Shown: positions 6,075-52,583, numbered from the stretch's first letter. The stretch is DNA of 52,583 nt from a virus (IMGVR_UViG_3300047555_000022:1-52583); one strand, 5' to 3'. Numbers and translations: made by a program. The notes: generated by a model not told the origin, from the sequence alone.

Positions 6075-6294
6075 CTTCTTTTATAGTTTGTGTGGATGCT
6101 CTTTCTAATTGTGCTTTTTGCTCTTCATACTTCATTATTGCGATAGTTTTCTGTTGCAGAAACTTATCAGCACTCATGTACTCGTACCTTAAAGAATCGT
6201 TCTTGTTAATGTCTCCAATTCTCGAATAATCGACTGCGAGGTCGTTTTGGAGGTTAAAAAATCGGCTTGCTCTATAATTTTCAATAGATTCCAT
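6067..6294 (-). CDS. Tail assembly chaperone C-terminal extension (gpT-like, -1 frame)
   Basis: Overlaps the upstream ORF in its -1 frame, immediately before the tape measure gene. Confidence 0.6.
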   Translation of the reverse strand: MESIENYRASRFFNLQNDLAVDYSRIGDINKNDSLRYEYMSADKFLQQKTIAIMKYEEQKAQLERASTQTIKEDE

Positions 6295-6971
6295 TGTAGC
6301 ATCTTGCTCGCCCCCCTTGCTGTCCCCTTCTCCGTCAAGGAAACATTGGCTAAAGTAGCTTCTAAGTCCTGCGAAATATTCAAAAGGCTCATTACAGGGA
6401 GGCGATATATAAAAGGTAGTAACCTATCTTTTTCTGCAAGTATTTTATTCATTAAATCCTGCTTTGCTCCATAATCATAGCTATAAGGGTTCATGCTTTT
6501 TGTGCATAAAAAACATATTGCCATCTCCAATTGCTCCCTATATTTATCACCAAATGCAAAGTCGTTGCTCAATGACAACAGCATATTTGAAGCGAAATTA
6601 ATTTCGTCCTGTGCCTTTATTACATCTTCACGAATCAGGTACTTTGCTTCTTCCAAATGAGTTCTTACAGTTTCGGCATACATAAAAAACTTTTCTTTTC
6701 TCAATCCGTATTCGTCGTATTGTTTTGGGATTTCCTGTGTGGCTATTAAAATTAACTCATAAGTTGCCTTATCAAGTTTTACTTTAAAAACCTCTTCACC
6801 ATTAGCCAAAACGAACAAAGGCGATGGCTCTATCATGCCTTCGCCCATCGCCCTTGTAAACGTATCCAAGACATATTCGTCTTTTTTCAATGAATCTATC
6901 TTTTCAGTAACATCTTCGTTTTTATACTTTTTTAAAATTGACTCCGCTAACCTAACTAATGTTTTTTTCAT
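6189..6971 (-). CDS. Tail assembly chaperone (gpG-like)
   Basis: Position upstream of the tape measure gene; contains an in-frame slippery heptamer T TTT TTA. Confidence 0.6.
   Translation of the reverse strand: MKKTLVRLAESILKKYKNEDVTEKIDSLKKDEYVLDTFTRAMGEGMIEPSPLFVLANGEEVFKVKLDKATYELILIATQEIPKQYDEYGLRKEKFFMYAETVRTHLEEAKYLIREDVIKAQDEINFASNMLLSLSNDFAFGDKYREQLEMAICFLCTKSMNPYSYDYGAKQDLMNKILAEKDRLLPFIYRLPVMSLLNISQDLEATLANVSLTEKGTARGASKMLQWNLLKIIEQADFLTSKTTSQSIIRELETLTRTIL
6255..6261 (-). other. Putative -1 programmed ribosomal frameshift site (U_UUU_UUA)
   Basis: GAT TTT TTA in ORF 6189..6971; a -1 slip enters the FFNLQND frame of ORF 6067..6294. Confidence 0.65.
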
Positions 6972-7432
6972 AAAAAATCTTTTGGTTCTACTCCTGTAAT
7001 TAATACTTGTATCAAAGTTGTTTCAAAATTCAATGGATAGTTCCCACTTTCATACTCGATAAACCAATACTTCTTATTGTTATTCAAAGTATTAGTGTTA
7101 ATGTTCAACACTTCAATATCGTTATCTTTCAAAATAGGGTACAATGAATCTAAAGTAGTAGCCCCAATAGCCTTATTGGTACTAAAAACCATGTCTATCT
7201 TTACTGTTCCTGTTCCATCATCGTTCCTGCTACTTACGAAGTCCCCAATTAAAGCATATCCTAAAATATCAAAAGAGTTATTGAAAGTCCACGGCATTTC
7301 TTTTATCAACCGTAAATCTTTGCCATTACGCTTTATCTGTTCGGGATTTACGACAAACTTTTGATTTATTCTACTGTTAAGTGTTTCAATGAATGATTCA
7401 TAAATGCACTCTATTTGCTCCTTTATCTTCAT
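6968..7432 (-). CDS. Putative tail completion/terminator protein
   Basis: Size and position in the neck/tail module; overlapping start-stop coupling. Confidence 0.35.
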   Translation of the reverse strand: MKIKEQIECIYESFIETLNSRINQKFVVNPEQIKRNGKDLRLIKEMPWTFNNSFDILGYALIGDFVSSRNDDGTGTVKIDMVFSTNKAIGATTLDSLYPILKDNDIEVLNINTNTLNNNKKYWFIEYESGNYPLNFETTLIQVLITGVEPKDFL

Positions 7433-7887
7433 ATTTTTAACATCTCTTCTTTTAGGCTTTCTTCAAAAAATAATACCGCATCTTCCTTTTCATTAGCCGA
7501 AAGAGAAAAGGCTTCAACACCCATATACCTTTCGTTGTATTCTGCCTTGTCCGCTTGAATCTTTGAACTAAACCCTACTGAAACATAATTTTTCCTTTTT
7601 TCGAGAATAGCAAAGTCGGCTACCATATCACCGCTTAAATTCAAATCACGAACTAAAATACCTCTCGCATAGCGACCTCTGACATTAGCATGAGCCTTAC
7701 TATATCGCCCAATCCTATTTGAACTATTCGTATCCATAACCGTACTTTCGGAGCTTTCACCTTTGCCAATACGAGTTTTTATTTTCTCGATACTTCTTTC
7801 GGCTACCTCAATAAGCAAATCGCTTGAATCCTTTAATCGGTTAAAGAACTTAATAGTGCTGTCGAGTGAAGAAATTTCTGTTTTCAT
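7429..7887 (-). CDS. Putative neck / virion morphogenesis protein
   Basis: Basic 152-aa ORF with YSKAH...R...DLNLSGDM pattern, located in the neck module. Confidence 0.45.
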   Translation of the reverse strand: MKTEISSLDSTIKFFNRLKDSSDLLIEVAERSIEKIKTRIGKGESSESTVMDTNSSNRIGRYSKAHANVRGRYARGILVRDLNLSGDMVADFAILEKRKNYVSVGFSSKIQADKAEYNERYMGVEAFSLSANEKEDAVLFFEESLKEEMLKI

Positions 7888-7888
7888 T

Positions 7889-8920
7889 TTAACTACGTGA
7901 TGCTATAATAAAACCACCGCCGCTTTCGGGCATACATGAAAAGCAAATACTATTGCCAACTAAGTTCTTACTAATGTTTTTCACCTCTCTATTCAAATAA
8001 GAATAATATTGTTTTCTTTTTTCGGGTAAAATATCTTTAATTATTGCTTCTAAATTACGCTCTTTTAGATAATTAATTTGAGGGCTGTCGATTTGCAACT
8101 GTACTATTTGCATATAAACCTGTAACATATAAGCATCAGCCAAACTATCTTTATAGTCGCATATTATTTGCATTATATCGCAATCAACATTCGCAATTAC
8201 ACACAACGGACTGCCGTTTGCCAGCACCATTTCGCTATCAAGTTCAATTACATTATCAAATTCCACCGCTTGTGTAGTAGTGCTTTCTGAATACTTTGAG
8301 CATAAGCAACTACAACTATCAAAACTGTTGTCATTACAATTCATTAGATTAAATGCAACGTCAGCACTCGAAATTGTTACAATTACACTTTCTGTTTGCA
8401 ACTCGGCAATGAATGTTTTTTTTAACTCATAAGAATAGTATTTTTCTACTACTGCTATGTCAACAGTATAAAGAACATTCTTTGTCAGTAGGTCAATAAT
8501 AGATAAAGTAACCGTTCCAGCATTTTTAGGATAAAAAGAAACCCTTTTTATTTCTAAAACTTGGTGCTGTGCTTTCTCTAAATTAATGACTAATCCGTAG
8601 TTTTGCTTAGTAGATGAAAATGCAGTAAGTGGTCTAAATGTATCTACAAAGTCCATCTTTAATACTTCTTTCTGAAAACTTGCATACCTGCCGAAGGAGT
8701 CGATAATATTGCTTTTAAAAACACCCAAGGCATTTGCCTTTGCATTTTCTAACACCTCGTAATAAGAAGCGTGTTTGTTTGGGTCAGCTATGGCTTCCAA
8801 AAAGTCCGCACTTATTCCTCCAATTGAATCTATGCGTAATTTACAGGGCGTAGGAGTTTCGCACCCTGTTATTCCTATGAGGTCTGTTAGACAGTTATCG
8901 CAAATATCGTGTACTTTCAT
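7889..8920 (-). CDS. Putative head-tail connector / structural protein (Cys-rich)
   Basis: 343 aa in the structural operon; position only. Confidence 0.4.
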   Translation of the reverse strand: MKVHDICDNCLTDLIGITGCETPTPCKLRIDSIGGISADFLEAIADPNKHASYYEVLENAKANALGVFKSNIIDSFGRYASFQKEVLKMDFVDTFRPLTAFSSTKQNYGLVINLEKAQHQVLEIKRVSFYPKNAGTVTLSIIDLLTKNVLYTVDIAVVEKYYSYELKKTFIAELQTESVIVTISSADVAFNLMNCNDNSFDSCSCLCSKYSESTTTQAVEFDNVIELDSEMVLANGSPLCVIANVDCDIMQIICDYKDSLADAYMLQVYMQIVQLQIDSPQINYLKERNLEAIIKDILPEKRKQYYSYLNREVKNISKNLVGNSICFSCMPESGGGFIIASRS

Positions 8921-9429
8921 TTTTTGTAATTTCTTGAAAATTCAATTACTCTGTCTTTTAACTTTGATAGACTCTCAATATCTTCCTTTTCTTTTGTAAC
9001 ACCTATCCAGTCAGAATAGAAGTCTGCCAAACTTCCCGAAAACCTAATTGCTTGACAAATGGTATTTCGGGCTGTCGTTTCGGGTAAGCTATCAATGCTA
9101 AATCCTGCCTGTGTTGAAACTATTAGAATCGGCTTCATGTCGAGTACCTCAAACTGAGGTTTTGATAATTGACAAAGCCATTCCATAAACATAGGAGGGA
9201 GGTTTTTATAATAAGACGGCACTACGAAAATTATCTTACTGCATTGAGCCACTAAGTTGTACGTGTCATCAAACCTACCTGTTAAATACTGCTTAGAAAA
9301 CCCTTCGACTTCAATCTGATTAAAGTTAGCATCAATGCCATCTTTTAATAAGACATCTACAATGCTATTACTAACGCTCAAAGAATAACTACCCTTTCGT
9401 TGTGTTGTATTTATAACCGCTATTTTCAT
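8917..9429 (-). CDS. Flavodoxin-fold NAD(P)H-dependent FMN reductase-like protein
   Basis: MKIAVINTTQRKGSYS start, IIFVVPSYYKNLPP and KPILIVST motifs typical of the FMN_red family. Confidence 0.7.
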   Translation of the reverse strand: MKIAVINTTQRKGSYSLSVSNSIVDVLLKDGIDANFNQIEVEGFSKQYLTGRFDDTYNLVAQCSKIIFVVPSYYKNLPPMFMEWLCQLSKPQFEVLDMKPILIVSTQAGFSIDSLPETTARNTICQAIRFSGSLADFYSDWIGVTKEKEDIESLSKLKDRVIEFSRNYKK

Positions 9430-12986: not shown

Positions 12987-13691
12987 TTATTGTTCCAATT
13001 CGTTTGAACAAATGGCGAAAATCTTTTCAAGATGTCCTAACCTTTCTGCTACGTCAAGCATAGATTCGTTTTTTGCTTTGAGAACGGCACGAAGCGAAAC
13101 ACCGTAGCGATAGTATAGCCTATCATAGACTACGTGCCAAACACTTCTTTGGTCGGCATTTTTAGCGTTGCAATATTGATTTATCAATTTCCTTATCTTT
13201 GCCCTTGTAGTTTCTTCAGGTATCTTTTCCGTTGAACGTTCTGCCAGTAGCAACTCTTGAGTAGCTACATTTCGGCTTTCTTCAATAGCTGTCAATCTAC
13301 TATCAAACTCTAATTGCTTCTTTTCAATATCAACTAAGAGTTGAGCATTTGCTAAAAGTTGTTCGGCTGGTGAAAGTGGCTTTTTTAAAACTTTCTCACA
13401 CTCAATAAAATACAACCGTGCTTGTTTGCCTTTGTCAGTACGCTGTACCATTGAAATTTCTTTGGCAGTATCCAGTGTTAAAGCAAAGTCGGTTTTATTA
13501 TTACCGCCCCAAACTCGCTCGTCATTTTTGACGACCAAGATATAGTCTTTATTTTCTTCAAAACCATATTCAAACATTCTTTTGCACCATTTGGCAAATT
13601 CAGTTTTCACTTCTAAGAACTTATGCAACTCTCTTGCACTTACTACTTGCGAGCCTTGCTCATTTGCTGTTACTTTGATTAATTCTTGCAT
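12987..13691 (-). CDS. Antirepressor-family protein: AntA/AntB N-domain + ORF6C-like C-domain
   Basis: VSARELHKFLEV...W...GFEENKDY...LTLDTAKEISM...KGKQARLYFIECEK. Confidence 0.85.
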   Translation of the reverse strand: MQELIKVTANEQGSQVVSARELHKFLEVKTEFAKWCKRMFEYGFEENKDYILVVKNDERVWGGNNKTDFALTLDTAKEISMVQRTDKGKQARLYFIECEKVLKKPLSPAEQLLANAQLLVDIEKKQLEFDSRLTAIEESRNVATQELLLAERSTEKIPEETTRAKIRKLINQYCNAKNADQRSVWHVVYDRLYYRYGVSLRAVLKAKNESMLDVAERLGHLEKIFAICSNELEQ

Positions 13692-14115: not shown

Positions 14116-14130
14116 GTTAGTGGCAAGCTA
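14116..14130 (-). repeat. Cassette-end motif TAGCTTGCCACTAAC outside the main array
   Basis: Identical to the ends of cassettes 2 and 4 (26150-26164, 27688-27702); overlaps the stop codon of the Rha gene. Confidence 0.75.
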
Positions 14131-14826
14131 AGAGAATATCCTCGAATAGTTATTGACGATATAATCAAGACCTTTCTTAGTGATTACGATTTTCTTGACT
14201 TTCATCTCTTTTTGACCTCGTGTTATAGTTTCAAAGAAAGTTCTGGCAAATCCTTGCTCTTCTACATTTCGAGTTGATGATGTGCCTTTGCTCGAATCTT
14301 TCATAGCCCAACCAATTTCTTTGAGTTTTGAACTAAGATTATTTCTACCTACGTTGATGATGTCGGAAACCGTGTCCAAGGTGTAAACTGTTGAATTGTC
14401 AATAACTCGGTCAAACGCTTCTACTTTCGGGGTTTGTTCAAGAACTTTTGCTTCGGCAAGTTGTTTGGCTTCTTCTGAAACTACTAACGCTTTGAGTGCT
14501 GAAACAAAATCATGTGGCAAAACTAAAACATTTTGTTGTGCTTTTTTCATTTCTGACCAGTCGTCAATTATTTTCATTCTTAGTGAAATCGAATAGCCAC
14601 TTGCAAGGCATAATGATAACCTTTCGGTGAGAAGAATTTCGGAATCATAGCCACGATTGTCTTTAATTACTTGAAAAGAATCATGGTTCAGAGTTGAATC
14701 ATCTTTTTCTAATTCAAAAAGCATATTTCTAATATCTCTAAGAACGTTTGAATGCTCTTTTCCTGTCTTCTCGGCAATTTGCTTACTCGACATCTTTTGA
14801 GTTGTACTTTTTACAATTTCTTGCAT
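14128..14826 (-). CDS. Antirepressor-family protein: Rha N-domain + KilAC/ANT C-domain
   Basis: MSSKQIAEKTGKEHSNVLRDIRNM (Rha) and PKVEAFDRVID...ITKKGLDYI (KilAC). Confidence 0.85.
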   Translation of the reverse strand: MQEIVKSTTQKMSSKQIAEKTGKEHSNVLRDIRNMLFELEKDDSTLNHDSFQVIKDNRGYDSEILLTERLSLCLASGYSISLRMKIIDDWSEMKKAQQNVLVLPHDFVSALKALVVSEEAKQLAEAKVLEQTPKVEAFDRVIDNSTVYTLDTVSDIINVGRNNLSSKLKEIGWAMKDSSKGTSSTRNVEEQGFARTFFETITRGQKEMKVKKIVITKKGLDYIVNNYSRIFS

Positions 14827-24004: not shown

Positions 24005-24047
24005 CAACTGATTGGTATTTAAAAGATTTAAAAACACTAAAATCATT

Positions 24048-24311
24048 ATGAAAAACAAAGTCAATAAATACTCAGATGCACAAGTTGTAAGGCTTTACAA
24101 TAGGCGAATTACAGTAACTAAAAAAGAAGACAAAATTTGTGTCTTATTACAAGCTGTATTGCCAACAGAGGAACTAAACTTTAATGGCTGTGGTATTCGT
24201 GGGAGCTTTAAACAAACGTGTTTTGGTTTAACAAGAGAGGCTGCAATGGCTTTGTGTTATTCCTTGAATGAAGTTTTAAATATGCAGCCTGTGTCCCAAA
24301 GTAACAGCTAA
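24048..24311 (+). CDS. Hypothetical protein ending in the first attC-like site
   Basis: TAA stop lies inside AGCTAAC. Confidence 0.55.
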   Translation: MKNKVNKYSDAQVVRLYNRRITVTKKEDKICVLLQAVLPTEELNFNGCGIRGSFKQTCFGLTREAAMALCYSLNEVLNMQPVSQSNS

Positions 24312-24480
24312 CACTTTGTTATGGGCAGTACGGTCAAATGTTCGGGAACTTCCGTCAGCCTAAACAAATGCTAAAAATGTTTGAACTAACCCGATGCTGA
24401 ATAGAATTACTAAACTTTAAAATTAAAAACGAATGTTGATAGAAGAACTAAACAGCCATTTTGCCAAACCCGTGTTATCG
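24306..24480 (+). repeat. attC-like site 1 (arms poorly matched)
   Basis: AGCTAAC...GTTATCG; contains the family motifs ACTTCCGTCAGCC and AATAGAATTAC. Confidence 0.55.
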
Positions 24481-25170
24481 GCTGGCGTTTTACGAGTTTT
24501 GATTGCTTGTGAGGAAAGTCAAACAGTAACAAAAGAATTTAGAAAATTAGGACACGAAGCGTTTTCGTGTGATATAATTCCGTGTAGCGGTGGACACCCC
24601 GAATGGCATATCCAACACGATGTAACAGATATATTAAAATTGAAGTGGGATATAATAATAGCACACCCACCTTGCACACATTTAGCCGTAAGTGGGTCAA
24701 GACACTTCGTGAAAAAACGTGCTGATGGCAGACAACGTGAAGCAATAGATTTCTTTATGAAATTTTTAGATGTTGATTGCAAATTAGTTGCAGTTGAAAA
24801 TCCAATAGGTATTATAAGTGGAAATTATGTTAAAGAACATTTTACTGATTTAGCTGAAAAATACGGATTACCAATTAAACACCAACAAATCATTCAACCG
24901 TTTGAATATGGCGACCCTGTAAAAAAATCAACTTGCTTATGGTTAAAAGGTTTACCAAAATTAGAACCTACAAACAATGTAGCTGACGAAGTTAAATACT
25001 ATGTAGATAGTAGAGGAATAAAACAAAGTGAATGGAATGTTAGACAGCTTGAAATTGATGGCAAAAAATACGGATATGATACAGCAGAATTTAAAAAACA
25101 TCGTTCAAAAACGTTTGATGGAATTGCAAATGCCATGGCTTTGCAGTGGTCGTCTTACGCTTGCCGATAA
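24433..25170 (+). CDS. DNA cytosine-C5 methyltransferase-like protein (cassette 1)
   Basis: RVLIACEES, AHPPCT (catalytic PC), VENP, RSKTF.GIA.AMA.QW motifs. Confidence 0.85.
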   Translation: MLIEELNSHFAKPVLSAGVLRVLIACEESQTVTKEFRKLGHEAFSCDIIPCSGGHPEWHIQHDVTDILKLKWDIIIAHPPCTHLAVSGSRHFVKKRADGRQREAIDFFMKFLDVDCKLVAVENPIGIISGNYVKEHFTDLAEKYGLPIKHQQIIQPFEYGDPVKKSTCLWLKGLPKLEPTNNVADEVKYYVDSRGIKQSEWNVRQLEIDGKKYGYDTAEFKKHRSKTFDGIANAMALQWSSYACR

Positions 25171-25256
25171 CGAAGGTATTTAAGAAGGACGGCTGTGAAC
25201 AAACGTGGCGTACGCTAACCAACTGTCTGCCGTCTTTCTGAAATACAATGTTAGTG
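25165..25256 (+). repeat. attC-like site 2
   Basis: CGATAAC; arms GTATTTAAGAAGGACGGC/GCCGTCTTTCTGAAATAC; GTTAGTG. Confidence 0.8.
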
Positions 25257-25301
25257 GCTGGCTTTTTTGTCAGATGTGCTTGGAAATACGAAATAACTTT
25301 G

Positions 25302-25421
25302 TATATTTGCATACGGTTTCAACGCCAAAAATGCTTTAAGATATTTTACCTTTGTAGGTTTAGTCGTTGGGTTTTAAGCAACCCTGTTGAAGCGATGAAA
25401 ACCTACAAAGGTATTTTTTTT
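25302..25421 (+). ncRNA. Antirepressor leader RNA A
   Basis: TATATTTG box; 15-bp stem TACCTTTGTAGGTTT/AAACCTACAAAGGTA followed by T8; GTTTCAACG pairs with TGTTGAAGC. Confidence 0.7.
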
Positions 25422-25432
25422 GTAATACCAAA

Positions 25433-26152
25433 ATGGAATTAATCAAAGTAACAACTACCGAAAAAAGTAACACAGTGTCTGCAAGAGAATTGTATGAGTT
25501 TTTAGAAGTGAAAACTCAATTCACAAAATGGTGTGAAAGAATGTTTGAATATGGATTTGAGGAAAACAAGGACTATTTATTGGTTAGTCAAAAAAGACTA
25601 ACCAATAATCCAAAGAATCCTTTCGCAACAGAATCAGACTACGCTCTCACGCTTGACACAGCAAAAGAAATATCAATGCTCCAACGTTCTGAAAAAGGTA
25701 AGCAAGCAAGGCAATATTTTCTCGAATGTGAAAAACAACTTAAAGGAAAAACTCCATCATACCAAATTGAGGACAAAATACAACGTGCAAAGGTTTGGAT
25801 AGAAGAAGAAGAAAATAGACTGCTATTGCAAGAAAAGAACGAGAAACTACAATTTAGGTCAGACTTTGTGGATGTTTGTTTCGATACGAATGGAATGTTT
25901 TCAATGGAAGAAACCGCAAAGATTTTTAAATTGCCTTTTGGAAGAAACGAAATGATGAAGCAACTAAGAGATAAAGGCATATTGACAAAAGAATCAAATA
26001 CTCCTACTCAAAAGTACGTTTCAAATGGATATTTCAAAGTAGTTGAAACTATGGTAGAAAATGGTGCTTTCAAAAAATTAGTTTCAACTACCTACGCAAC
26101 GCAAAAAGGAATTGGATATATTCACAAATTGTTCAAGAACGAACTTGTTTAG
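25433..26152 (+). CDS. Antirepressor-family protein: AntA/AntB + KilAC/ANT (cassette 2)
   Basis: VSARELYEFLEV... N-domain; GRNEMMKQLRDKGIL...PTQKYV..GYF...TQKG C-domain. Confidence 0.85.
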   Translation: MELIKVTTTEKSNTVSARELYEFLEVKTQFTKWCERMFEYGFEENKDYLLVSQKRLTNNPKNPFATESDYALTLDTAKEISMLQRSEKGKQARQYFLECEKQLKGKTPSYQIEDKIQRAKVWIEEEENRLLLQEKNEKLQFRSDFVDVCFDTNGMFSMEETAKIFKLPFGRNEMMKQLRDKGILTKESNTPTQKYVSNGYFKVVETMVENGAFKKLVSTTYATQKGIGYIHKLFKNELV

Positions 26153-26157
26153 CTTGC

Positions 26158-26354
26158 CACTAACGAACAGGGCTTTGCGGTCGTTTGGGAATTTGAAAAA
26201 CGTCCGATTGGAACTGCTGCTGAATAAAATTACTAATGATTAAAATACTTACAAATGCACAATAAAGAACGTCAAGCCGAAACAGAAGTTGATAGCGAAC
26301 AAATGCCCATTGATACAACGTCAAGCCCAAATGCCGCAAAACCCAATGTTGTAC
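26158..26354 (+). repeat. attC-like site 3
   Basis: CACTAAC; arms GGGCTTTGCGG(T)CGTTTGGG/CCCAAATGCCGCAAAACCC; GTTGTAC. Confidence 0.8.
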
Positions 26355-26545
26355 GCTGCTTTTGTATGGTCTGCGGTAATGAATTTCAAGGTGAAGAACC
26401 TAAAATGTGTTGTAGTGGTAGAGATTGTGGATGTATGGGAATGCCTATCGACCCTGTCGTTTGTTCTGATGAATGTTATAATAATTTACCAATGTTTAAA
26501 AACAGAAATGATGAAAAACAAAAAGTCGTATTGGATGAAAAGTAA
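26255..26545 (+). CDS. Cys-rich small protein (cassette 3); starts within site 3
   Basis: CMVC, CCSGRDCGC and CSDEC motifs. Confidence 0.65.
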   Translation: MHNKERQAETEVDSEQMPIDTTSSPNAAKPNVVRCFCMVCGNEFQGEEPKMCCSGRDCGCMGMPIDPVVCSDECYNNLPMFKNRNDEKQKVVLDEK

Positions 26546-26678
26546 AGAAGGCAATGTCGCAAGTGTAACTTTTGAAGGAAGTAGAAAGCCGTCAAAAAAA
26601 ACAGTTGAAGCATTAAGCACAATGATTGATTTGGCTTTTCATAAACTTTCAAAGGAAAGTAAGCTGTCCGCTAAGTAG
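26508..26678 (+). CDS. Small basic hypothetical protein (cassette 3)
   Basis: 3' part of ORF 26289..26678, from MMKNKK. Confidence 0.5.
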   Translation: MMKNKKSYWMKSKEGNVASVTFEGSRKPSKKTVEALSTMIDLAFHKLSKESKLSAK

Positions 26679-26679
26679 C

Positions 26680-26772
26680 GTACAACGAAGGTATTTAAGA
26701 AGGACGGCAGGGAGTGAACTTTGCGAAACGCCAACCAACTGTCTGCCGTCTTTCTGAAATACTATGTTGGTG
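26680..26772 (+). repeat. attC-like site 4 (close paralogue of site 2)
   Basis: GTACAAC; same arms as site 2; GTTGGTG. Confidence 0.8.
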
Positions 26773-26820
26773 GCTGGCTATATTTTTGTTCCATGTTCTT
26801 GGAAATACCAAATAACTTTG

Positions 26821-26937
26821 TATATTTGTGCATGGTTTCGCAGCCAAAAGAAAAATAAGACATTTAGGCGTTGTTCTGTTAGGATTGGGTTATTTTTTCA
26901 CCCTTGCGAAGTCCAAAACAGAACAATGCCTTTTTTT
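26821..26937 (+). ncRNA. Antirepressor leader RNA D
   Basis: TATATTTG box; stem AGGCGTTGTTCTGTT/AACAGAACAATGCCT followed by a T run; TTCGCAG pairs with TTGCGAA and GAAAAA with TTTTTC. Confidence 0.7.
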
Positions 26938-26946
26938 GTAAACAAA

Positions 26947-27690
26947 ATGCAACATATTGAAATTTTCAAGTACAATGAAACCCCAATTGAGTTTGAGGTA
27001 ATCAATGGAGAAGTTTTTGCAAATGCAACAATCATGTGTAAAGCCTTTGAAAAAAGACCCACAAAATGGTTAGAGTTAGAATCTACAAAACGATACATTG
27101 AGGCATTAAAAGTGAAGTCCTCAAATAGTACATCACTAATTGAGGTTAGAAAAGGAAACTCAACAGAATTTTCACAAGGAACTTGGATTCACGAGAAGTT
27201 GATTTTGAAATTAGCAACATGGTTAGATGTTAATTTCGAACTATGGTGCGATGAAAAAGTTACTGAATTATTAAAAAATGGGAAGGTTGAATTGAAACCC
27301 AAAACGCAAATTGAAATTTTGTTAGAAAGTGTTCAAATGTTAGCAAGCATTGAACAAAAGCAAAATGACATGGATTTGAGAATAACGGCAATTGAGCAAA
27401 CAAATCAACTTGCCTTAGCCGAGTTGAATCATATTGAAAGGAGTACGGAGGAAGTTCCCGAAATTGGCATAAGATTGAAAATTAATCAAATAGTAAGAGC
27501 CTATTCGGAAAAAACAGGAATTGCATATCAAGATATTTGGCGGTCAATGTATTCAAAGATGTTATACGCATATCGCTTCAATCCGAATGCCTATAAGAAA
27601 TTGCATGACAAAGAAACCAAGTTAGATATAATCGAAAGGGAAAATCAACTCGATAATCTCTTTGCTATTGTTTCAAAGGAACTTGTTTAG
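26947..27690 (+). CDS. KilA-N domain + ORF6C-like C-domain protein (cassette 4)
   Basis: NATIMCKAFEKRPTKWL...QGTWIHEKL...ATWL..NFELWCD. True start is MQHIEIF at 26947. Confidence 0.85.
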   Translation: MQHIEIFKYNETPIEFEVINGEVFANATIMCKAFEKRPTKWLELESTKRYIEALKVKSSNSTSLIEVRKGNSTEFSQGTWIHEKLILKLATWLDVNFELWCDEKVTELLKNGKVELKPKTQIEILLESVQMLASIEQKQNDMDLRITAIEQTNQLALAELNHIERSTEEVPEIGIRLKINQIVRAYSEKTGIAYQDIWRSMYSKMLYAYRFNPNAYKKLHDKETKLDIIERENQLDNLFAIVSKELV

Positions 27691-27695
27691 CTTGC

Positions 27696-27891
27696 CACTA
27701 ACGAAAAAGGCTTTGTGTCAGGCAATGGAATTGAAATACGTCTGACCGAACCAAAGCTAAATAGAGTTACAAAAGATAAAAATTATTACAAATGAACAAT
27801 AAAGAACTTCTGCCCGAACCGCAGCCAAATAGTGAACAAATGCCGATTGATAGCACTTCTGCCATTGCTTGCACAAAACCCAATGTTGTAC
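27696..27891 (+). repeat. attC-like site 5 (paralogue of site 3)
   Basis: CACTAAC; arms GGCTTTGTG(T)CAGGCAATGG/CCATTGCTTGCACAAAACC; GTTGTAC. Confidence 0.8.
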
Positions 27892-28106
27892 GCCGTTTTT
27901 TCTTCGTGTGTACAGCAGGTAGAGAGTTTAACAATAGTATGTCATTTAATGCTTTTGATATTAAAACAGACGATGGTAATTACCCAACTTATAGAAAATG
28001 TTTAGAAGTTTCCGAAACAAAATATCCAAACCAAAGGTCGGTTACACTTTTAAGTATTTCAGAAGTACCAAAAGAAGATTGGGAACATTTTGTATCTATT
28101 CAATAA
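27792..28106 (+). CDS. Hypothetical protein (cassette 5); starts within site 5
   Basis: N-terminus resembles that of 26255 up to KPNVVR, then is unrelated. Confidence 0.6.
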   Translation: MNNKELLPEPQPNSEQMPIDSTSAIACTKPNVVRRFFFVCTAGREFNNSMSFNAFDIKTDDGNYPTYRKCLEVSETKYPNQRSVTLLSISEVPKEDWEHFVSIQ

Positions 28107-28125
28107 CAATTAAAAAATAAAAATT

Positions 28126-28437
28126 ATGAAATTCAAAAACGATGTCGCAAATTATCACAAAATGAGTGAGCCACACGAAAGCCCCGAAAAAGCAAATGAA
28201 GCTCTCGAAAAGTTTTATGAAAAAGTATCAGAAGCAAGAAAAGAATTTAAGATTGCAGATGTACTTGTCATTACAAAAGGCAGTATTAAATACGCAGATG
28301 GCGAAGAAGGACAATTTATGCAGCATAGTCAATTTGGAAGCCAATTAAACGGTGTATCAATGGCTGCTTATGCTTATGGTCAATTACAAGCAGAAGATAG
28401 AGAACTGTTAAACAAATTAGTTGCAGGTAAAAGGTAG
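28126..28437 (+). CDS. Hypothetical protein (cassette 5)
   Basis: ORF track. Confidence 0.6.
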   Translation: MKFKNDVANYHKMSEPHESPEKANEALEKFYEKVSEARKEFKIADVLVITKGSIKYADGEEGQFMQHSQFGSQLNGVSMAAYAYGQLQAEDRELLNKLVAGKR

Positions 28438-28451
28438 TGTCCACAAATGGC

Positions 28452-28585
28452 GTACAACGTACAAGTATTTATGAAGAAGGGGGAATTTGGAAAACGTCAG
28501 CCCCCGTAACTTACTAATTTTCAATAGAATTACAACAGTTCAATTACTTCCGTCAGCCCCCTTTTTCATAAATACAGTGTTGGTG
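28452..28585 (+). repeat. attC-like site 6
   Basis: GTACAAC; arms GTATTTATGAAGAAGGGGG/CCCCCTTTTTCATAAATAC; GTTGGTG. Confidence 0.8.
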
Positions 28586-28653
28586 GCTGGCGTTTTTGTC
28601 CACGGGAGAAGTTTCTGCCCATTTTAAAATGAAACAACTAAATAAATTATATC

Positions 28654-29427
28654 ATGAAAGTAATTAATCAAGTCAATCAGACCACTGATTATGGTAAATT
28701 TCAAAGTTTGAACGGTAATAGAAATGTTAATGCTCTTCATGTGAGACGCTTACAAGAATCTTTTGCCAAATCTTATTTACTAAGTCCAATTTTAGTAAAT
28801 GATAAGTTTGAGATTATTGATGGACAGCATCGCTTTGAAGCTGCCAAAAAATTAAACCTGCCAATAAACTTTATTTCTATCCCAAACTATGGATTGGAGC
28901 AAGTTCAGTTGCTAAACACAAATATGAAAAATTGGAAATCAGAAGATTATTTACAAGGGTTTTGCGATTTAAAATATCCTGAATATTTAAAGTTTAGAAA
29001 TTTTATGAGACAATTTCCAAGTTTTTTGTTTCAAGGTTGCGATATTTTGTTAAATGATACATCAAACGGTTCTGATAAGCAACAGAATAGCAAGGAACTG
29101 ATAACTAAAACAAATAAGGCAGGCGATTATAATAAAAATTTATTTAAAGAGGGCGAATTGAAAATTCCCAATTATGAAAAAAGTGTTGCCAATGCTAATA
29201 ATTTGATGAGATTAAAAGATTATTATGAAGGGTACAATCGAACAATTTTTATAAGAACAATGGTCGTACTTTTCAAACATGAAAATTTTGATTTTGAGGT
29301 ATTTATTTCAAAGGTGAAGTTAAATCCAACATCATTAAAACCATGTGTTTCGGTAACAGATACAAAATTATTGATTGAGGAAATTTACAATTATCGAAAT
29401 CAAAACAAAGTGTCTTTGAGGTATTAG
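28654..29427 (+). CDS. ParB/Srx-like N-terminal domain protein (cassette 6)
   Basis: GNRNVN...PILVN...IIDGQHRFEA motif. Confidence 0.75.
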   Translation: MKVINQVNQTTDYGKFQSLNGNRNVNALHVRRLQESFAKSYLLSPILVNDKFEIIDGQHRFEAAKKLNLPINFISIPNYGLEQVQLLNTNMKNWKSEDYLQGFCDLKYPEYLKFRNFMRQFPSFLFQGCDILLNDTSNGSDKQQNSKELITKTNKAGDYNKNLFKEGELKIPNYEKSVANANNLMRLKDYYEGYNRTIFIRTMVVLFKHENFDFEVFISKVKLNPTSLKPCVSVTDTKLLIEEIYNYRNQNKVSLRY

Positions 29428-29457
29428 CATTGACTGGCAAGTGCCTAGTACGCTTGC

Positions 29458-29590
29458 CACCAACGTAAAAGTATTGCCGAAGGGCAGGGATTAGAATTAC
29501 AAAACTTCAAAATAAGTACAAATGAACAATAGAATTACAAATGCTGATGAACTTACGTCAGCCCTGCCTTTTGGCAATACAGTGTTACCT
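29458..29590 (+). repeat. attC-like site 7
   Basis: CACCAAC; arms GTATTGCCGAAGGGCAGGG/CCCTGCCTTTTGGCAATAC; GTTACCT. Confidence 0.8.
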
Positions 29591-30106
29591 GCTGCCCTTT
29601 TGCAGTCTGACATTATGAATAAAATAATTGTTGAAATATACAATGGGTGGCCTGGAGAAACTGGTTTACAAAGAGTAATTGAAAAGGTAAACTTTCTTTG
29701 TGAAAGAGTTCCGCAGTATGCCAAAATTATGGGCAAAACAGACCTTGAAACTTTGGAGCTATTTGCAAAATCAAGAAATTGTAATTACACAAACTACTTT
29801 CAGAATGCAAACTTCCCCGATTTATCAGAGGTGTATGTTTTTGATACGATTGAAGATGTAAAGGCAAAGTTTCCAAGTAAAACATATCAATGCCCTTGCT
29901 GTGGTGGAATTTCAACCGATTATCAAGAATGCAATTCAGGTAAAACAGTTGATAAAAAAGGCAAAGAAGTCTGTAATTGGAAAGTTTACGGATTGTTTGG
30001 GGATATGGGAAAAGGAATTAAGGTTATTGTAAAAGATATGTTTACCGAAATCCCAAAACCTGTCGCAATGTTTAAGCCTGTTGAACTCTTAGAGGCTGTC
30101 TCTTAG
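29522..30106 (+). CDS. Hypothetical Zn-finger-like protein (cassette 7); alternative start 29615
   Basis: CPCC...C...CNWKVYGLF motif. Confidence 0.65.
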   Translation: MNNRITNADELTSALPFGNTVLPAALLQSDIMNKIIVEIYNGWPGETGLQRVIEKVNFLCERVPQYAKIMGKTDLETLELFAKSRNCNYTNYFQNANFPDLSEVYVFDTIEDVKAKFPSKTYQCPCCGGISTDYQECNSGKTVDKKGKEVCNWKVYGLFGDMGKGIKVIVKDMFTEIPKPVAMFKPVELLEAVS

Positions 30107-30112
30107 GGTTGC

Positions 30113-30243
30113 AGGTAACGGATTAGGTGTTTAAGAAGGACTGGAAATAGAATTACAAAAGTTCGTTTACTTCCAACTGTCAAGTAATGCTTGAATGTTC
30201 AATTAACCACGTCCGCCAGTCTTTCTTAAACACCCTGTTAGTG
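30113..30243 (+). repeat. attC-like site 8
   Basis: AGGTAAC; arms GGTGTTTAAGAAGGACTGG/CCAGTCTTTCTTAAACACC; GTTAGTG. Confidence 0.8.
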
Positions 30244-30304
30244 GCTGCCGATTTTGGTTGCACAAATATTTTAATCTTTTTTTTGGAAGTATGAAAAACG
30301 TTAT

Positions 30305-30512
30305 TACATTTGTGTATCCAATTCGCATAGCGGTCGCTACCGCTCAAATCATAGCGGTTTTTTTGTGCCTTATAGTTTTTAATGATACCGATGGTAAAAC
30401 ACGGTGTCGCAACTACCGTAATTGTTTGAACACAATTGCCCTATGCGGGTTGGATAACGGAAAGAGCGGCACCGTGTTTTGTCGTTTACAAGCATTAAAA
30501 TCCAATAGCGTA
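30305..30512 (+). ncRNA. c4-antisense-like leader RNA (cassette 8)
   Basis: TACATTTG box; TATCCAATTCGCATAG pairs with CTATGCGGGTTGGATA; stem AAAACACGGTGTCGC/GCGGCACCGTGTTTT; second ATCCAA target next to ATG 30513. Confidence 0.6.
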
Positions 30513-30800
30513 ATGCAAACAAATCAAACCATCGCTTTATCTTCCATGAGTGAAGATGCGAACCTCCCAACCGCCTTGCAAGAGGCAATCAACGAGTTTT
30601 TCTGTTATAACGGCACACCTGCCGATATTGACGAAAAGCTATTTTCCATGCTCGAATCCGCCACCGCAGGCGTTGAAGAAGTCGGCTTAGATGCCAAAGA
30701 AGTTTTAGGCTATCTTTTCTTCTACAAAACCGACAAAGTCCTTTTCAATCAGCTACATTCTTTCACCGCTAAAACTAACGTAGAGCTATGCAAGAACTAA
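30513..30800 (+). CDS. Small protein upstream of an antirepressor (icd-like position)
   Basis: MQTNQTIAL start after the leader; overlaps the antirepressor start. Confidence 0.55.
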   Translation: MQTNQTIALSSMSEDANLPTALQEAINEFFCYNGTPADIDEKLFSMLESATAGVEEVGLDAKEVLGYLFFYKTDKVLFNQLHSFTAKTNVELCKN

Positions 30801-31459
30801 TTAAAGTTGCGACTAATTCGCAAGGCGAAAGGGTCGTAAGTGCAAGAGAACTTTATGAATTTTTGGGAATGAATAATGCCGTTTTTGCTCGTTGGTCAAA
30901 AAAGAACATTGAAGAAAACCAATTTGCAATAGAAAATGAAGACTGGGCTATGCTCAACATCATGTTGAGCAATGGGAATCAAACCAAAGATTACGCTTTA
31001 AGTTTAGATTTTTCAAAGCGTATTTCAATGATGGCACGAACAGAAAAAGGCGAACAGTTGCGAAATTATTTTATTGAGTGTGAAAAGGCATTGAAGGCAA
31101 CCGTACCAGTAGCGATTTCAATAGAAGATGCTTTGATACAGCAACTACTCGTTACAAAGGCTATTCGCATAGAGCAAGAGCAAATAAGAGCAAAGCAAGT
31201 TGAACAAGATGCACGAATATTGCAAATCGAAGCCAAGACCACCACACGCCCAGAATATTTTACAGTCATGGGTTATGCTATTTTGCAAGGGGCAAGGGTC
31301 GGTTTATCATTAGCGGCTCAAATAGGCAAAAAAGCCAAAACTATATGCAGTACAAAAGGCTATCACATTGACAAAATCCACGACCCACGTTTTGGACAGG
31401 TCGGGTGCTACCCTGCCGATGTACTCAAAGAAGTATTCAATACAACTACTTTTTCGTAG
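30788..31459 (+). CDS. Antirepressor-family protein: AntA/AntB + distinct C-domain (cassette 8)
   Basis: VSARELYEFLG...KGEQLRNYFIECEK; C-domain RPEYFTVMGYA...DPRFGQV..YP. Confidence 0.85.
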   Translation: MQELIKVATNSQGERVVSARELYEFLGMNNAVFARWSKKNIEENQFAIENEDWAMLNIMLSNGNQTKDYALSLDFSKRISMMARTEKGEQLRNYFIECEKALKATVPVAISIEDALIQQLLVTKAIRIEQEQIRAKQVEQDARILQIEAKTTTRPEYFTVMGYAILQGARVGLSLAAQIGKKAKTICSTKGYHIDKIHDPRFGQVGCYPADVLKEVFNTTTFS

Positions 31460-31527
31460 CGTTGTCAAGTCGGGGCAGTCGTTGGCTGTCCCACTTTTCA
31501 AAGTGTCGAAGTGGTTTTTTCGGTTGC

Positions 31528-31600
31528 CACTAACACGCAGATTGACGCAATTGAAAAACATAACTCTTTGATAATTAAAGAGTTATGTTTGCGTATTATG
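31528..31600 (+). repeat. Terminal degenerate attC-like site 9 with a perfect inner hairpin
   Basis: CACTAAC; AAACATAACTCTTT/AAAGAGTTATGTTT; no closing GTT. Confidence 0.5.
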
Positions 31601-32718: not shown

Positions 32719-33294
32719 ATATCGGCAAGAAGTCTTTATGAGTTTTTAGAAATAAAAGAACATTTCACTCAATGGATTGAAAGAATGTTCGATTACGGGT
32801 TTAATGAAAGTGTTGATTATCAGGCGATTAAGGAATTTATTAATCATTCAAATGGAGTTGGAGGTACTTATAAAACTGAATATGCCTTGACATTGGATAC
32901 TGCGAAAGAAATAGCAATGCTACAAAGAACCGAAAAAGGAAAACAAGCAAGGCAGTATTTTATTGAGTGTGAAAAGCAAAATAAAATGAAACCGATGTCA
33001 ATTGAGGAGATGATTATTGCAAATGCTCAAAGTATGATTGATACTAAAAAACGATTAACAAATTTGGAGGATTTTACGCATACTAAATTTGAAGAAACGT
33101 TTACTAAAATTGACGAAATTAAAGCATTGTCATCAACAAGACCTGAGTATTTTACAATAGTTGGTTATGCTTCTTATATGCGTGTCCATGTTGATAACAC
33201 AAGTGCTAAAAAGTTAGGTGCAATTGCTGCAAAACTTTGCAAAGAACGTGGATTGCCTATTGATAAAGTTCCAGATACTCGATGTCGCAAGTAA
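32719..33294 (+). pseudogene. Antirepressor (AntA/AntB + 30788-type C-domain) clipped at both ends
   Basis: In-frame ISARSLYEFLEIKEHFTQW upstream of ATG 32785 has no standard start codon; the C-domain stops at DTRCRK. Confidence 0.6.
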
Positions 33295-35730: not shown

Positions 35731-35762
35731 ATTTTCTAAGTTGGAAAGTGAAAATATATTTG

Positions 35763-35882
35763 TATATTTGCATACGGTTTGAAACGCCAAAAGCAAAAAT
35801 AAGACATTCAAGCAAGGCTTGGCTAAATCGGAGGTTCTTTTTGCACCTGTTTCAACGATGAAAGCCAAGCCTTGCTTTTTTT
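35763..35882 (+). ncRNA. Antirepressor leader RNA E
   Basis: TATATTTG box; stem AAGCAAGGCTTGGCT/AGCCAAGCCTTGCTT followed by a T run; TTGAAACG pairs with TGTTTCAA and GCAAAAA with TTTTTGC. Confidence 0.7.
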
Positions 35883-36105: not shown

Positions 36106-36810
36106 ATGCAAGAACTAATTCAAATCACAACCAACAATCAAGGATTGAAAGTTGTTTCAGCAAGAGAATTATATGCTTTCTTAGGTTATGAAAGTAATAA
36201 GTTTGCAAGATGGGCGAAATCTAAAATCTTAGAAAACGATTTTGCTATTGAAAATGAAGATTGGCAGGGGTTAGACATTAATGTCCAAGGCAACATTACC
36301 AAAGATTACGCACTAAGTATTGATTTTTCAAAGCGTTTATCACAAATGGCAAGAACAGCCAAAGGTGAAGAAATAAGAAATTACTTCATTGAGTGCGAAA
36401 AGCAATTACAGACACCAAAAGAGCTAAGTAGAAAAGATATTTTGTTGCTTGCCTTAGAATCGGAAGAGCGTGCAATTTTAGCCGAAACCAAGATTTTAGA
36501 ATTGCAACCCAAAGTTGAAGCGTTCGACCGAGTAATAGATAATTCAACTACTTATACACTTGACACCGTTTCCGATATTATTAATATTGGTAGAAACAAA
36601 CTATCTGAAAAGTTAAAGCAAATCGGCTGGGCGGTCAAAGATTCAAGCAAAGGAACGTCAAGCACTCGCAAGGTAGAAGAAATAGGTTACGCTCGTACTT
36701 TCTTTGAAACGATAGTAAACGGACAAAAGGAACTGAAAGTAAAGAAAATCGTTATTACCAAAAAAGGACTTGACTATTTAGTAAATAATTATTCTAAGAT
36801 TTTTGCGTAG
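36106..36810 (+). CDS. Antirepressor-family protein: AntA/AntB + KilAC/ANT
   Basis: N-domain resembles 30788; C-domain is nearly identical to that of 14128..14826. Confidence 0.85.
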   Translation: MQELIQITTNNQGLKVVSARELYAFLGYESNKFARWAKSKILENDFAIENEDWQGLDINVQGNITKDYALSIDFSKRLSQMARTAKGEEIRNYFIECEKQLQTPKELSRKDILLLALESEERAILAETKILELQPKVEAFDRVIDNSTTYTLDTVSDIINIGRNKLSEKLKQIGWAVKDSSKGTSSTRKVEEIGYARTFFETIVNGQKELKVKKIVITKKGLDYLVNNYSKIFA

Positions 36811-45502: not shown

Positions 45503-46105
45503 TTATAAAAGTTGTGTGTTTAAAAATAGTACTGCAATAATTTTTGTGCCGTCCATTACCTCCGTCCCTTCATGTATCATTTGTTTATCTCCAACTTGAT
45601 TTACAAGATTCTTCCAAACATAAACAGTCCCTTTTTTTGCCGAAAACTCTAAATTATTTAGCAATGGAAACTTTGTTTGACCACCTCGCAAGGCATTTTG
45701 TAAGCCTATCATAATCGTAAACATTCGATTACCTGATACATTTTTATTGTCCTCAAACCAATCAAAATGCGGGCGTAACTTCTGACCTTTTTTATATTTT
45801 ATTATATCAATCGTTGTTGCTATTTGCTTTATCGTAGTCGATTTTCCAAATAGACCCTTTGATATGATTTCTAATTTTTGATGAATAAGTGTATCAATTC
45901 CTGAACCTCTCGAAATTGCCGCAATATCAGAATCCCTATAATGTGTATCTACAATTACTGCCCCTGAGCTATCTACAACTGTCCCAACACTCGAAAACTC
46001 TAAAGGAGCAGAAAGGATTCTATCAATTTCTGAGTCAGTAAATAACCCATCAATTGAAAAAAACTTTTGATTTTCAATTACCTTTAGCATCCTCCGACCG
46101 TCCAA
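45503..46105 (-). CDS. 2OG-Fe(II) oxygenase, prolyl-4-hydroxylase-like
   Basis: KY..GQ...PHFD, NRMFT, GGQTKFP, HEGTEV..GTK motifs. Confidence 0.85.
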   Translation of the reverse strand: MDGRRMLKVIENQKFFSIDGLFTDSEIDRILSAPLEFSSVGTVVDSSGAVIVDTHYRDSDIAAISRGSGIDTLIHQKLEIISKGLFGKSTTIKQIATTIDIIKYKKGQKLRPHFDWFEDNKNVSGNRMFTIMIGLQNALRGGQTKFPLLNNLEFSAKKGTVYVWKNLVNQVGDKQMIHEGTEVMDGTKIIAVLFLNTQLL

Positions 46106-52456: not shown

Positions 52457-52583
52457 CTGTTAAAGGGACGTTATGAGTAACCTCATTATTTGTGCCTGTT
52501 ACTAACCCGATAGTGTCCATTATCTCGTTTGTAGTTTGCCCCTCCAATTCTTTTGTAGGTATGGTTATGTAAGTTTTTGGGCT
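52457..52583. repeat. Terminal direct repeat copy
   Basis: Identical to 1-127. Confidence 0.95.

Follow-up and report, generated by a model that had tools for sequence, protein, structure and literature searches.

The DNA of a virus comprising 52,583 nucleotides (IMGVR_UViG_3300047555_000022:1-52583; this whole stretch is hereafter referred to as the window) carries, at 24.3-31.6 kb, an array of eight co-oriented units with seven full AAC-hairpin-GTT sites and two bounding half sites. The units are probably eight mobile cassettes of an integron-like system found in phages of Flavobacteriia-type hosts, a system that is linked to an Xer-like recombinase and is here without one. Integrons are the textbook platform of gene capture, tied to the IntI family of integrases and mostly bacterial. 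A preliminary description of the window had regarded the units as cassettes of a site-specific, integron-like system, and the present analysis supports that view. The named array genes are of the phage accessory kind, i.e., a DNA methyltransferase, three anti-repressor-type proteins, and a ParB-like protein; the others are small open reading frames (ORFs) without a named family.

Own-End Pairing and Predicted Folding of the Sites

Each full site consists, in this order, of an AAC box (GCNNNNAAC), a short spacer, an arm, a loop, a second arm, a further short spacer, and a GTT box (GTTNNNNGC). The seven full sites are located on the plus strand at 25163-25258, 26156-26356, 26678-26774, 27694-27893, 28450-28587, 29456-29592, and 30111-30245, and the half sites on the same strand at 24306 and 31526. 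All boxes named in the preliminary description are present around the eight co-oriented units, the GCNNNNAAC boxes starting at 25163, 26156, 26678, 27694, 28450, 29456, 30111, and 31526, and the GTTNNNNGC boxes at 24474, 25250, 26348, 26766, 27885, 28579, 29584, and 30237 (all plus strand). Both end sites are degenerate, as had been stated: the left one is devoid of its left arm, and the right one comprises only the AAC box.

The start box of each unit is the reverse complement of the end box of the same unit (9/9 in seven units, 8/9 in unit 4). When 13-mers are compared with the fixed triplet excluded, own start and own end match at 65/80 positions, against 29/80 for the box across the same hairpin, and the observed own-end score was reached by 14 of 100,000 shuffles of the end boxes; the claim that a unit complements its own end and not the neighbouring box is therefore borne out. 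Just outside the 9-mers, a T in the end box is opposite a G in the start box in all eight units, which corresponds to a G.T pair on the plus strand only. The rule was further examined in a non-circular manner, in which sites were chosen by their arms alone and the GTT box of each site was compared with the AAC box of the next site. Across seven arrays with 29 consecutive site pairs, own ends matched at 144/203 positions and boxes of the same hairpin at 75/203, and 0/20,000 shuffles reached the own-end score; the low-scoring pairs reflect a site skipped by the scanner or a spurious match. In silico, the circle form of a unit, in which the end box is joined to the unit's front hairpin, folds 4.5-10.5 kcal/mol better on the plus strand than the array form in all eight units, with a fully paired outer stem, an opening of 2-5 nucleotides (nt), and an inner stem, in agreement with the proposal that a site is perfect only in the excised circle.

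To assess the conservation of this structure, 22 sites were aligned, of which three are located in the window and 19 in eight other loci; the consensus comprises 19 pairs. Two-sided changes that keep the pair are observed at 13 of the 19 pairs, the AAC/GTT pairs are invariant, and two G.T pairs are invariant in 22/22 sites on the plus strand. On the opposite strand, these invariant G.T pairs would become C.A mismatches; it is therefore the plus (sense) strand that is under selection for folding. A covariance model (R1), a custom model of the kind that the preliminary description had recommended, was built from this alignment and used to scan both strands of the window with filters off. R1 yields nine matches at E<=1, of which seven are the full sites, all on the plus strand; the four full sites outside the training set score 22.8-30.1 bits (E 4e-5 to 2e-3), and the two remaining matches have E values of 0.25 and 0.87. 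Over 502,497 bases from 36 sources, R1 gives 76 matches at E<=0.1. These are confined to 17 sources, each with an array, and the other 19 sources, including two distant-homologue controls, are without a match. The arm scanner finds five strong sites in the window, all in the array, and three other plus-strand matches that score only 10. No match was obtained from Rfam over the whole window at the gathering score, nor in viral contigs with an exact IUPAC pattern derived from sites 1, 3, and 5 of the window. A generic search of the whole window for own-end 11-mer pairs returned 45 pairs on the plus strand against a shuffle mean of 29.65; this search is uninformative on cassettes outside the array because just two array units pass its strict filter.

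Position of the Crossover and Movement of Cassettes

Own-end pairing alone cannot tell a hairpin that belongs to the left unit (crossover G|TT) from one that belongs to the right unit (AA|C). The preliminary description had placed recombination at the right-hand G/TT, and this part does not hold: the breakpoints mapped in other phages are located at the AAC side of the hairpin, i.e., at G|TT on the other strand (7/7 junctions in phage Freya, 3/3 ends of the methyltransferase cassette, and the similarity on the recombinase side). The crossover is assigned to the AAC side on the basis of these Freya junctions, the recombinase leader, the end of the methyltransferase cassette, and the ORF starts in hairpin loops. 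Because the breakpoints are at the AAC side, the hairpin and the ORF downstream of it move as one unit, and the start codon of this ORF is often located in the hairpin. The ORFs of units 1, 3, 5, and 7 (4/8 modules) begin inside the loop of the preceding hairpin and read through the GTT box, and PHROG matches that start only at residues 21 and 37 were likewise taken as an indication that the hairpin belongs to the downstream ORF. The earlier statement that most stop codons sit in or near the AAC box applies loosely: relative to the end of AAC, one stop is within the box and five are 8-21 nt before it, whereas two are 37 and 75 nt before it.

The methyltransferase cassette of the window recurs at 91-93% nucleotide identity in three viral loci (L041-L043) with other neighbours on both sides. 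The similarity spans the upstream hairpin and stops at 25171/2, at the AAC, and the hairpins that follow differ (right end, 3/3 contigs). Furthermore, two contigs of 48 kb and 97 kb (G006 and G007; CheckV completeness 15% and 28%) match the window, in the fetched loci, only at this cassette and at one extra hairpin copy. Since these phages are otherwise unlike the window, the cassette has moved between unlike phages.

Recombinases Beside Related Arrays

No tyrosine recombinase is recognisable in the window genome, as had been noted: a six-frame search with PF00589 gave no match in the window and was positive in 14/14 control genomes, and none was found among the 71 window ORFs scanned by Pfam. 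Related arrays elsewhere, by contrast, abut a compact Xer-like recombinase that is not of the IntI type. A tyrosine recombinase with the IntI-specific extra segment is found neither in the window nor beside these arrays.

One such array came to light in a search with the RNase H encoded beside the array of the window, which recovered 12 viral contigs. One of them, G001, shares only the RNase H (66% identical) with the window and carries an array of 10 arm-scanner sites, all of which obey the own-end rule, along with one overlapping match judged spurious. Its tyrosine recombinase sits just across the contig ends from the last cassette and comprises 266 amino acids from the first ATG. The best NCBIfam model is the archaeal-type XerA (164 bits, cut-off 220), and the integron-integrase model TIGR02249 gives 123.9 bits against a cut-off of 265. 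Among solved structures, XerA (4a8e) aligns end to end and unbroken (E 3e-24), whereas the alignment with IntI4 (2a3v) is split in two, 42 residues taking the place of 90 in IntI4.

Homologues of the G001 type (85-94% identity) occur in ten more viral loci and in one contig of a Bacteroidota metagenome-assembled genome (91%). Arm-scanner sites are found upstream on the same strand in 7/11 viral recombinase loci, the other four having little or no upstream DNA or being G001 itself. In 10/10 loci with any upstream DNA, a ...TAAC or ...CAAC box abuts a common leader of 50-60 nt before the start codon, and in each of the nine loci that show the last cassette, the start box of that cassette pairs with this final end box. 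When the contigs are compared with one another, nucleotide similarity on the side of the recombinase begins inside the AAC box of the last cassette, 0-11 nt ahead of the C of its AAC triplet, and there is no relationship between the cassettes farther upstream. A second type of Xer-like recombinase is encoded ~2 kb downstream of the window-type methyltransferase cassette in G006 and G007 (97% at the amino acid level), with the same layout of end box followed by leader.

The leader of the recombinase gene (L018-L025, ~60 nt upstream of the start) is attI-like and C/A-rich and contains two direct CCAACAAAAC-like words; such direct copies are reminiscent of the direct repeats of attI1. The locus L025 additionally shows, at 4536-7372 on the minus strand, seven more R1 matches just upstream of its plus-strand array, i.e., a second array facing the first, and between the two arrays a 201-nt element (7433-7633) that is bounded by AAC/GTT and has ends that are perfect inverted repeats of each other for at least 34 nt. 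G001 and L025 initially seemed to have reordered cassettes in common, but an all-against-all comparison of the G001-type arrays does not confirm this: no matches of at least 150 nt are listed within arrays except between L018 and L019 (99% alike), and the remaining listed matches involve the recombinase leader or the outer ends of the sequences compared.

Arrays in Cultured Phages

By tblastn, recombinases of 32-38% identity were found in Cellulophaga phage Ingeline and in Polaribacter phages Freya and Leef. Ten Freya isolates from one host strain range from 43,978 to 48,920 bp, with the recombinase gene 50 to 4,147 nt from the start of the record, and include seven array versions that differ by whole cassettes. 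The stretch from a conserved 1,050-nt ORF to the recombinase was compared in seven isolates with Freya_10 as the reference. Freya_1, _2, _5, and _9 are progressively longer prefixes of the Freya_10 array followed by the recombinase leader, Freya_8 lacks one internal block, and in Freya_6 the Freya_5 array is followed by a different block of 440 nt. All seven junctions fall exactly after ...CAAC or ...TAAC. The differences are mostly at the recombinase end (five nested junctions and one different cassette), the exception being one internal excision. The block absent from Freya_8 has a hairpin at its start and an AAC box at its end, and its inner GTT box pairs with the end box at 10/12 positions. 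The gain and loss of cassettes for which the preliminary description had proposed to look in related phages is thus observed between isolates, with breakpoints after AAC and not at GTT.

Ingeline and Leef are alike in layout, in that the last AAC box is directly followed by a CCC-rich leader and the recombinase. Upstream in Leef, three box pairs are perfect over 10 nt, and two more have one mismatch. In Polaribacter phage P12002L, candidate sites in the form of arm-scanner matches are located on the gene strand. The paper on the Freya isolates calls the gene an integrase and takes it as a hint of a temperate life style; neither 'cassette' nor 'integron' occurs in its main text (PMC8776804).

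Proposed Mechanism and Alternative Explanations

In the proposed scheme, a cassette comprises, in order, a 5′ hairpin module of 84-197 nt (AAC to GTT), the start box R′ (GTTNNNNGC...), one or two ORFs, and the end box R″ (...GCNNNNAAC). In the excised circle, R″ would meet the hairpin and R′, and the plus strand is predicted to fold into an attC-like structure with a paired R box, an open spacer of 2-5 nt, and a second stem. The crossover would take place just after or within AAC, as mapped in other phages, and new cassettes appear to enter at the 50-60-nt leader of the ~266-residue Xer-like recombinase. The hairpin loop would supply the start codon and first residues in four of the eight window cassettes. 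The Xer-like enzyme presumably does the cutting, on single-stranded DNA, and would act in trans on the window genome: because this phage is without recombinase and leader, its cassettes should be movable only by a recombinase from a co-infecting phage or the host. More broadly, Bacteroidota phages may have an IntI-independent integron lineage of their own, with a compact Xer-like recombinase, folded sense-strand hairpins, portable in-frame translation starts, and in-trans servicing by co-infecting phages; we give this wider proposal an even chance.

Several observations weigh against the mobile-cassette interpretation or limit its reach. The recombinase profile A2 leaves no trace in the window at E<=10, and the attI-like leader consensus has no match there at <=3 mismatches. 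The G001-type recombinase is without the segment that marks IntI, as indicated by the two-piece alignment with IntI4 (42 versus 90 residues), and no sites are found upstream of two more distant Xer-like homologues encoded in faecal phage contigs (2/2). R1 has no match in Freya, Leef, Ingeline, P12002L, L022, or L081, where the sites are shorter or belong to different sequence types; since it misses Freya, Leef, and Ingeline, the link to the cultured phages is drawn from the layout and from the 32-38% identical recombinases. As no close relative of the window was found, there is no same-locus comparison within its own lineage. The window was compared with contigs, and contigs only, of four runs (the likely source sample and three runs from three other studies); no circle junction is listed among them, and they yielded loose ends in single contigs and an 84-nt loop deletion.

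Furthermore, the degenerate first hairpin module of the array, H0, behaves in a manner that a single AAC crossover does not explain. An H0-type module alone (24388-24485, 93-95% identity) precedes other R′ boxes and ORFs in 4/4 loci (L076-L079), and the similarity to the window extends over 92-99 nt, up to a point inside the R′ box or directly behind it. Possibly, hairpin families are conserved across cassettes, like the attC sites within one chromosomal integron, or the other strand also recombines at G|TT.

An array that has become a frozen relic, having lost its recombinase and leader site so that its cassettes no longer move and are kept as ordinary accessory genes, is a tentative alternative that we consider rather unlikely. 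The window has neither recombinase nor attI-like site, its left hairpin is truncated, and its right end is without a site, all as a relic would have it; against this, the boxes are still complementary at 8-9 of nine positions in all eight units and seven hairpins are intact. Moreover, single contigs place other cassette ends before window positions 24388, 26169 (one X4 contig), and 29462 (run X1), so that hairpins H2 and H6 stand behind other cassette ends in the likely source sample and in another study, junctions that are weakly supported in that each is carried by one contig.

The array could instead be a piece of a bacterial IntI integron acquired by the phage and served by the integron integrase of the host, i.e., a canonical cluster of attC sites lacking an integrase (CALIN). 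Its attC-like anatomy with AAC/GTT triplets fits this reading, as does the publication of phage CALINs together with the finding that IntI1 recombines 5/6 tested phage attC sites, including one from P12002L (Qi et al., 2023; PMC9892861). The recombinases beside related arrays are not IntI, however, the ORFs are on the strand opposite to the canonical layout with start codons in hairpin loops, and the named cassette genes are of phage type (anti-repressors, methyltransferase, ParB-like), which renders this origin improbable.

It is very unlikely that the hairpins are regulatory RNAs or terminators and that shuffling occurs by ordinary homologous recombination between repeats. Such shuffling has been proposed for the promoter-stem-loop repeats of T4-type phages, and the sense-strand structure with invariant G.T pairs, the promoter-like leaders and start codons of some modules, and the ERF annealing protein encoded in the window would agree with it, but it explains neither the own-end pairing, nor the base-exact AAC junctions between unlike hairpins, nor the constant adjacency of a tyrosine recombinase. 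Tandem insertions of small transposable elements with terminal inverted repeats (GTTNNNNGC / GCNNNNAAC) are hardly credible despite the inverted ends of 9-13 nt on each unit, given that the Pfam scan of the 71 window ORFs shows no transposase, the inner four letters vary between units while the triplets are fixed, the Freya junctions show no target duplication, and the arrays end at a tyrosine recombinase.

Relation to Known Systems

The window array, which by its anatomy would qualify as a CALIN, shares with integrons and CALINs the co-oriented cassettes and the imperfect hairpins with AAC/GTT triplets, an R box, an unpaired spacer, and an L stem, in which structure is conserved over sequence; also as in integrons, the start of a cassette pairs with its own 3′ box and not with that of its neighbour. 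In the arrays of other phages, the recombinase is at one end and points away from the array, and the differences between isolates are mostly at that end, again as in integrons. Read on the complementary strand, the arrangement is that of canonical geometry, with the integrase, an adjacent attI, and the hairpin at the far end of the cassette. By contrast, the enzyme beside the arrays is a 266-residue Xer-like protein that is without the IntI insertion and below the TIGR02249 cut-off, and the ORFs are on the strand of the G.T pairs. Integron cassettes are promoterless, with the ORF upstream of its own attC, whereas here the hairpin is 5′ of the ORF and may carry its start codon, and some cassettes have a promoter-like leader of their own, a repeated leader being shared by cassettes 2 and 4. 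The window itself is without a recombinase.

In CTX-type phages and integrative mobile elements exploiting Xer (IMEX), an Xer-family enzyme acts on a one-strand hairpin, one strand is exchanged, and replication completes the process; the whole phage genome is integrated at the chromosomal dif site by the XerC/D of the host. This one-strand-hairpin Xer mechanism is the one proposed here; the difference is that the enzyme would be encoded by the phage and would relocate numerous small cassettes inside phage genomes. The pdif modules of Acinetobacter plasmids are likewise gene modules bounded by Xer-type recombinase sites in varied contexts (PMC7399989), but pdif sites are short, double-stranded, and dif-like, whereas the present ones are hairpins of 84-197 nt that vary in sequence and show own-end pairing.

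Clusters of attC-like sites in phages have been surveyed by Qi et al. (2023; PMC9892861), who screened 10,705 GenBank phage genomes with IntegronFinder and HattCI and reported three integrons, one lone integrase, and 17 CALINs of at least two sites, including a two-site cluster in Polaribacter phage P12002L. These clusters resemble the window array in being integrase-less, in occurring in virulent phages, including a marine Polaribacter phage, and in having methyltransferase cassettes. The main text of that article, whose supplementary tables may list further phages, does not contain 'Xer', 'Cellulophaga', or 'Flavobacter'. The suggestion that the phage system was undescribed therefore has to be narrowed to the Xer-linked variant with inverted ORFs, as integrase-less attC clusters of phages are already in print (PMC9892861). 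For this variant, no description was found in the literature searched of an Xer-like recombinase tied to phage hairpin cassette arrays, of the inverted gene orientation, or of the array differences among Freya isolates.

Perspective

The array points to a parallel platform of gene capture in phages with a simpler, Xer-type enzyme. The platform occurs in cultured phage-host pairs (Polaribacter phages Freya and Leef, Cellulophaga phage Ingeline), with natural gain and loss of cassettes between isolates of one host strain, which opens to testing the exchange of anti-repressor, methyltransferase, and other accessory genes among phages, the possible need of the IntI insertion for hairpin recombination, and the possible origin of integron integrases from Xer. 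Because standard integron finders require IntI, they would at best label such arrays as orphan attC clusters. If the IntI-independent lineage is real, unrelated phages would share one pool of accessory and anti-defence genes, and the system could serve as a living model for the way in which an Xer enzyme became an integron integrase.

Features of the Individual Cassettes

All features of the array are on the plus strand. At its left, a terminal AAC box (AGCTAAC, 24306..24312) is located at the stop of the ORF 24012-24311, with no matching GTT box upstream. Cassette 1 (24313..25171) consists of the H0 remnant (24313..24473), R′ GTTATCGGC at 24474, a DNA methyltransferase (24433-25170; PHROG 757, E 1.5e-60, match starting at residue 21), and R″ GCCGATAAC. 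H0 is devoid of the left arm of complete copies and has its leader ATG at 24433; similarity to complete copies in other phages begins at 24388, and a full left arm ahead of this position is present in one contig of run X3. The frame of the H0 module is open into ORFs of 89-245 amino acids in 21 of the 23 occurrences that do not run off the locus, and stops after 21-24 codons in the other two. The leader peptide of this loop, MLIEELNSHFAKPVL (window 24433; 26 occurrences in L041-L079), continues in frame through the recombination box into at least four different protein bodies, several of which look like different DNA methyltransferases.

Cassette 2 (25172..26164) has hairpin H1 (25163-25258), R′ GTTAGTGGC, a promoter-like leader, an AntA/KilAC anti-repressor (25433-26152), and R″ GCCACTAAC. 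Cassette 4 (26687..27702) is built in the same order, with hairpin H3 (26678-26774; 91% like H1), R′ GTTGGTGGC, a promoter-like leader, a KilA-N protein (26947-27690), and R″ GCCACTAAC, its R′ and R″ matching at 8/9 positions with the exception at a G.T position. The leader is conserved (79-83% identity) at 25280-25331, 26799-26850, and 35741-35792 with the motif TTTG...TATATTTG, and it precedes three anti-repressor-type genes, two in the array and one outside (36106-36810). A stem and a T run follow it in both array copies read, and the leader resembles a Bacteroidetes-type promoter, judging from its motif, plus an attenuator or small RNA.

Cassette 3 (26165..26686) begins with the long hairpin H2 (26156-26356; leader ATG 26255) and R′ GTTGTACGC, contains a Cys-rich ORF of 96 amino acids, whose PHROG match starts at residue 37, and an ORF of 56 amino acids, and ends with R″ GCGTACAAC. 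The same boxes, GTTGTACGC and GCGTACAAC, delimit cassette 5 (27703..28458), which has the long hairpin H4 (27694-27893; leader ATG 27792) and ORFs of 104 and 103 amino acids. Cassette 6 (28459..29464) comprises hairpin H5 (28450-28587), R′ GTTGGTGGC, a ParB-like protein (28654-29427), and R″ GCCACCAAC, and cassette 7 (29465..30119) comprises hairpin H6 (29456-29592; leader ATG 29522), R′ GTTACCTGC, an ORF of 194 amino acids, and R″ GCAGGTAAC. One contig of run X1, the likely source sample, with a depth of 12.3 versus 32-39 for the main contigs, skips 84 nt of the H6 loop (29484-29567), which would be a short-loop H6 site without the leader ATG. Cassette 8 (30120..31534) contains hairpin H7 (30111-30245), R′ GTTAGTGGC, the ORF 30258-30800, an AntA protein (30788-31459), and R″ GCCACTAAC. 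The right end of the array (31535..31600), in the position of the recombinase leader of other arrays, is without hairpin module, GTT box, attI-like leader, and recombinase gene.

Genome Context

The phage genome is the 52,583-base window, with a direct terminal repeat of 127 nt (1-127 / 52457-52583). CheckV completeness is 48% despite this repeat, and if the genome were partly missing, the statement that it has no recombinase would be weaker; a minus-strand frame is open at both window ends and could join across them. At the nucleotide level, GenBank phages resemble the window only over ~230 nt within the ERF gene (82% for both Cellulophaga phage phi19:1 and Olleya phage Harreka), and near-identical DNA is found in public-run contigs labelled as freshwater or aquatic metagenomes. 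No relatives of the gene directly downstream of the array, nor of the DnaB gene, were found in viral contigs, and the 12 RNase H relatives among viral contigs have little else in common with the window.

The Pfam scan of the 71 ORFs identified a tape-measure protein, a large terminase, a DnaB-type helicase, the ERF annealing protein, and RNase H, together with six AntA/KilAC/Rha proteins and one KilA-N protein. The seven anti-repressor-type genes are located at 12987-13691, 14128-14826, 25433-26152, 26947-27690, 30788-31459, 32785-33294, and 36106-36810, three of them in the array. A 2OG-Fe(II) oxygenase (45503-46105), a caspase-family peptidase C14 (46949-47725), and an FMN-reductase-like protein (8917-9429) are encoded within blocks of structural and lysis genes.

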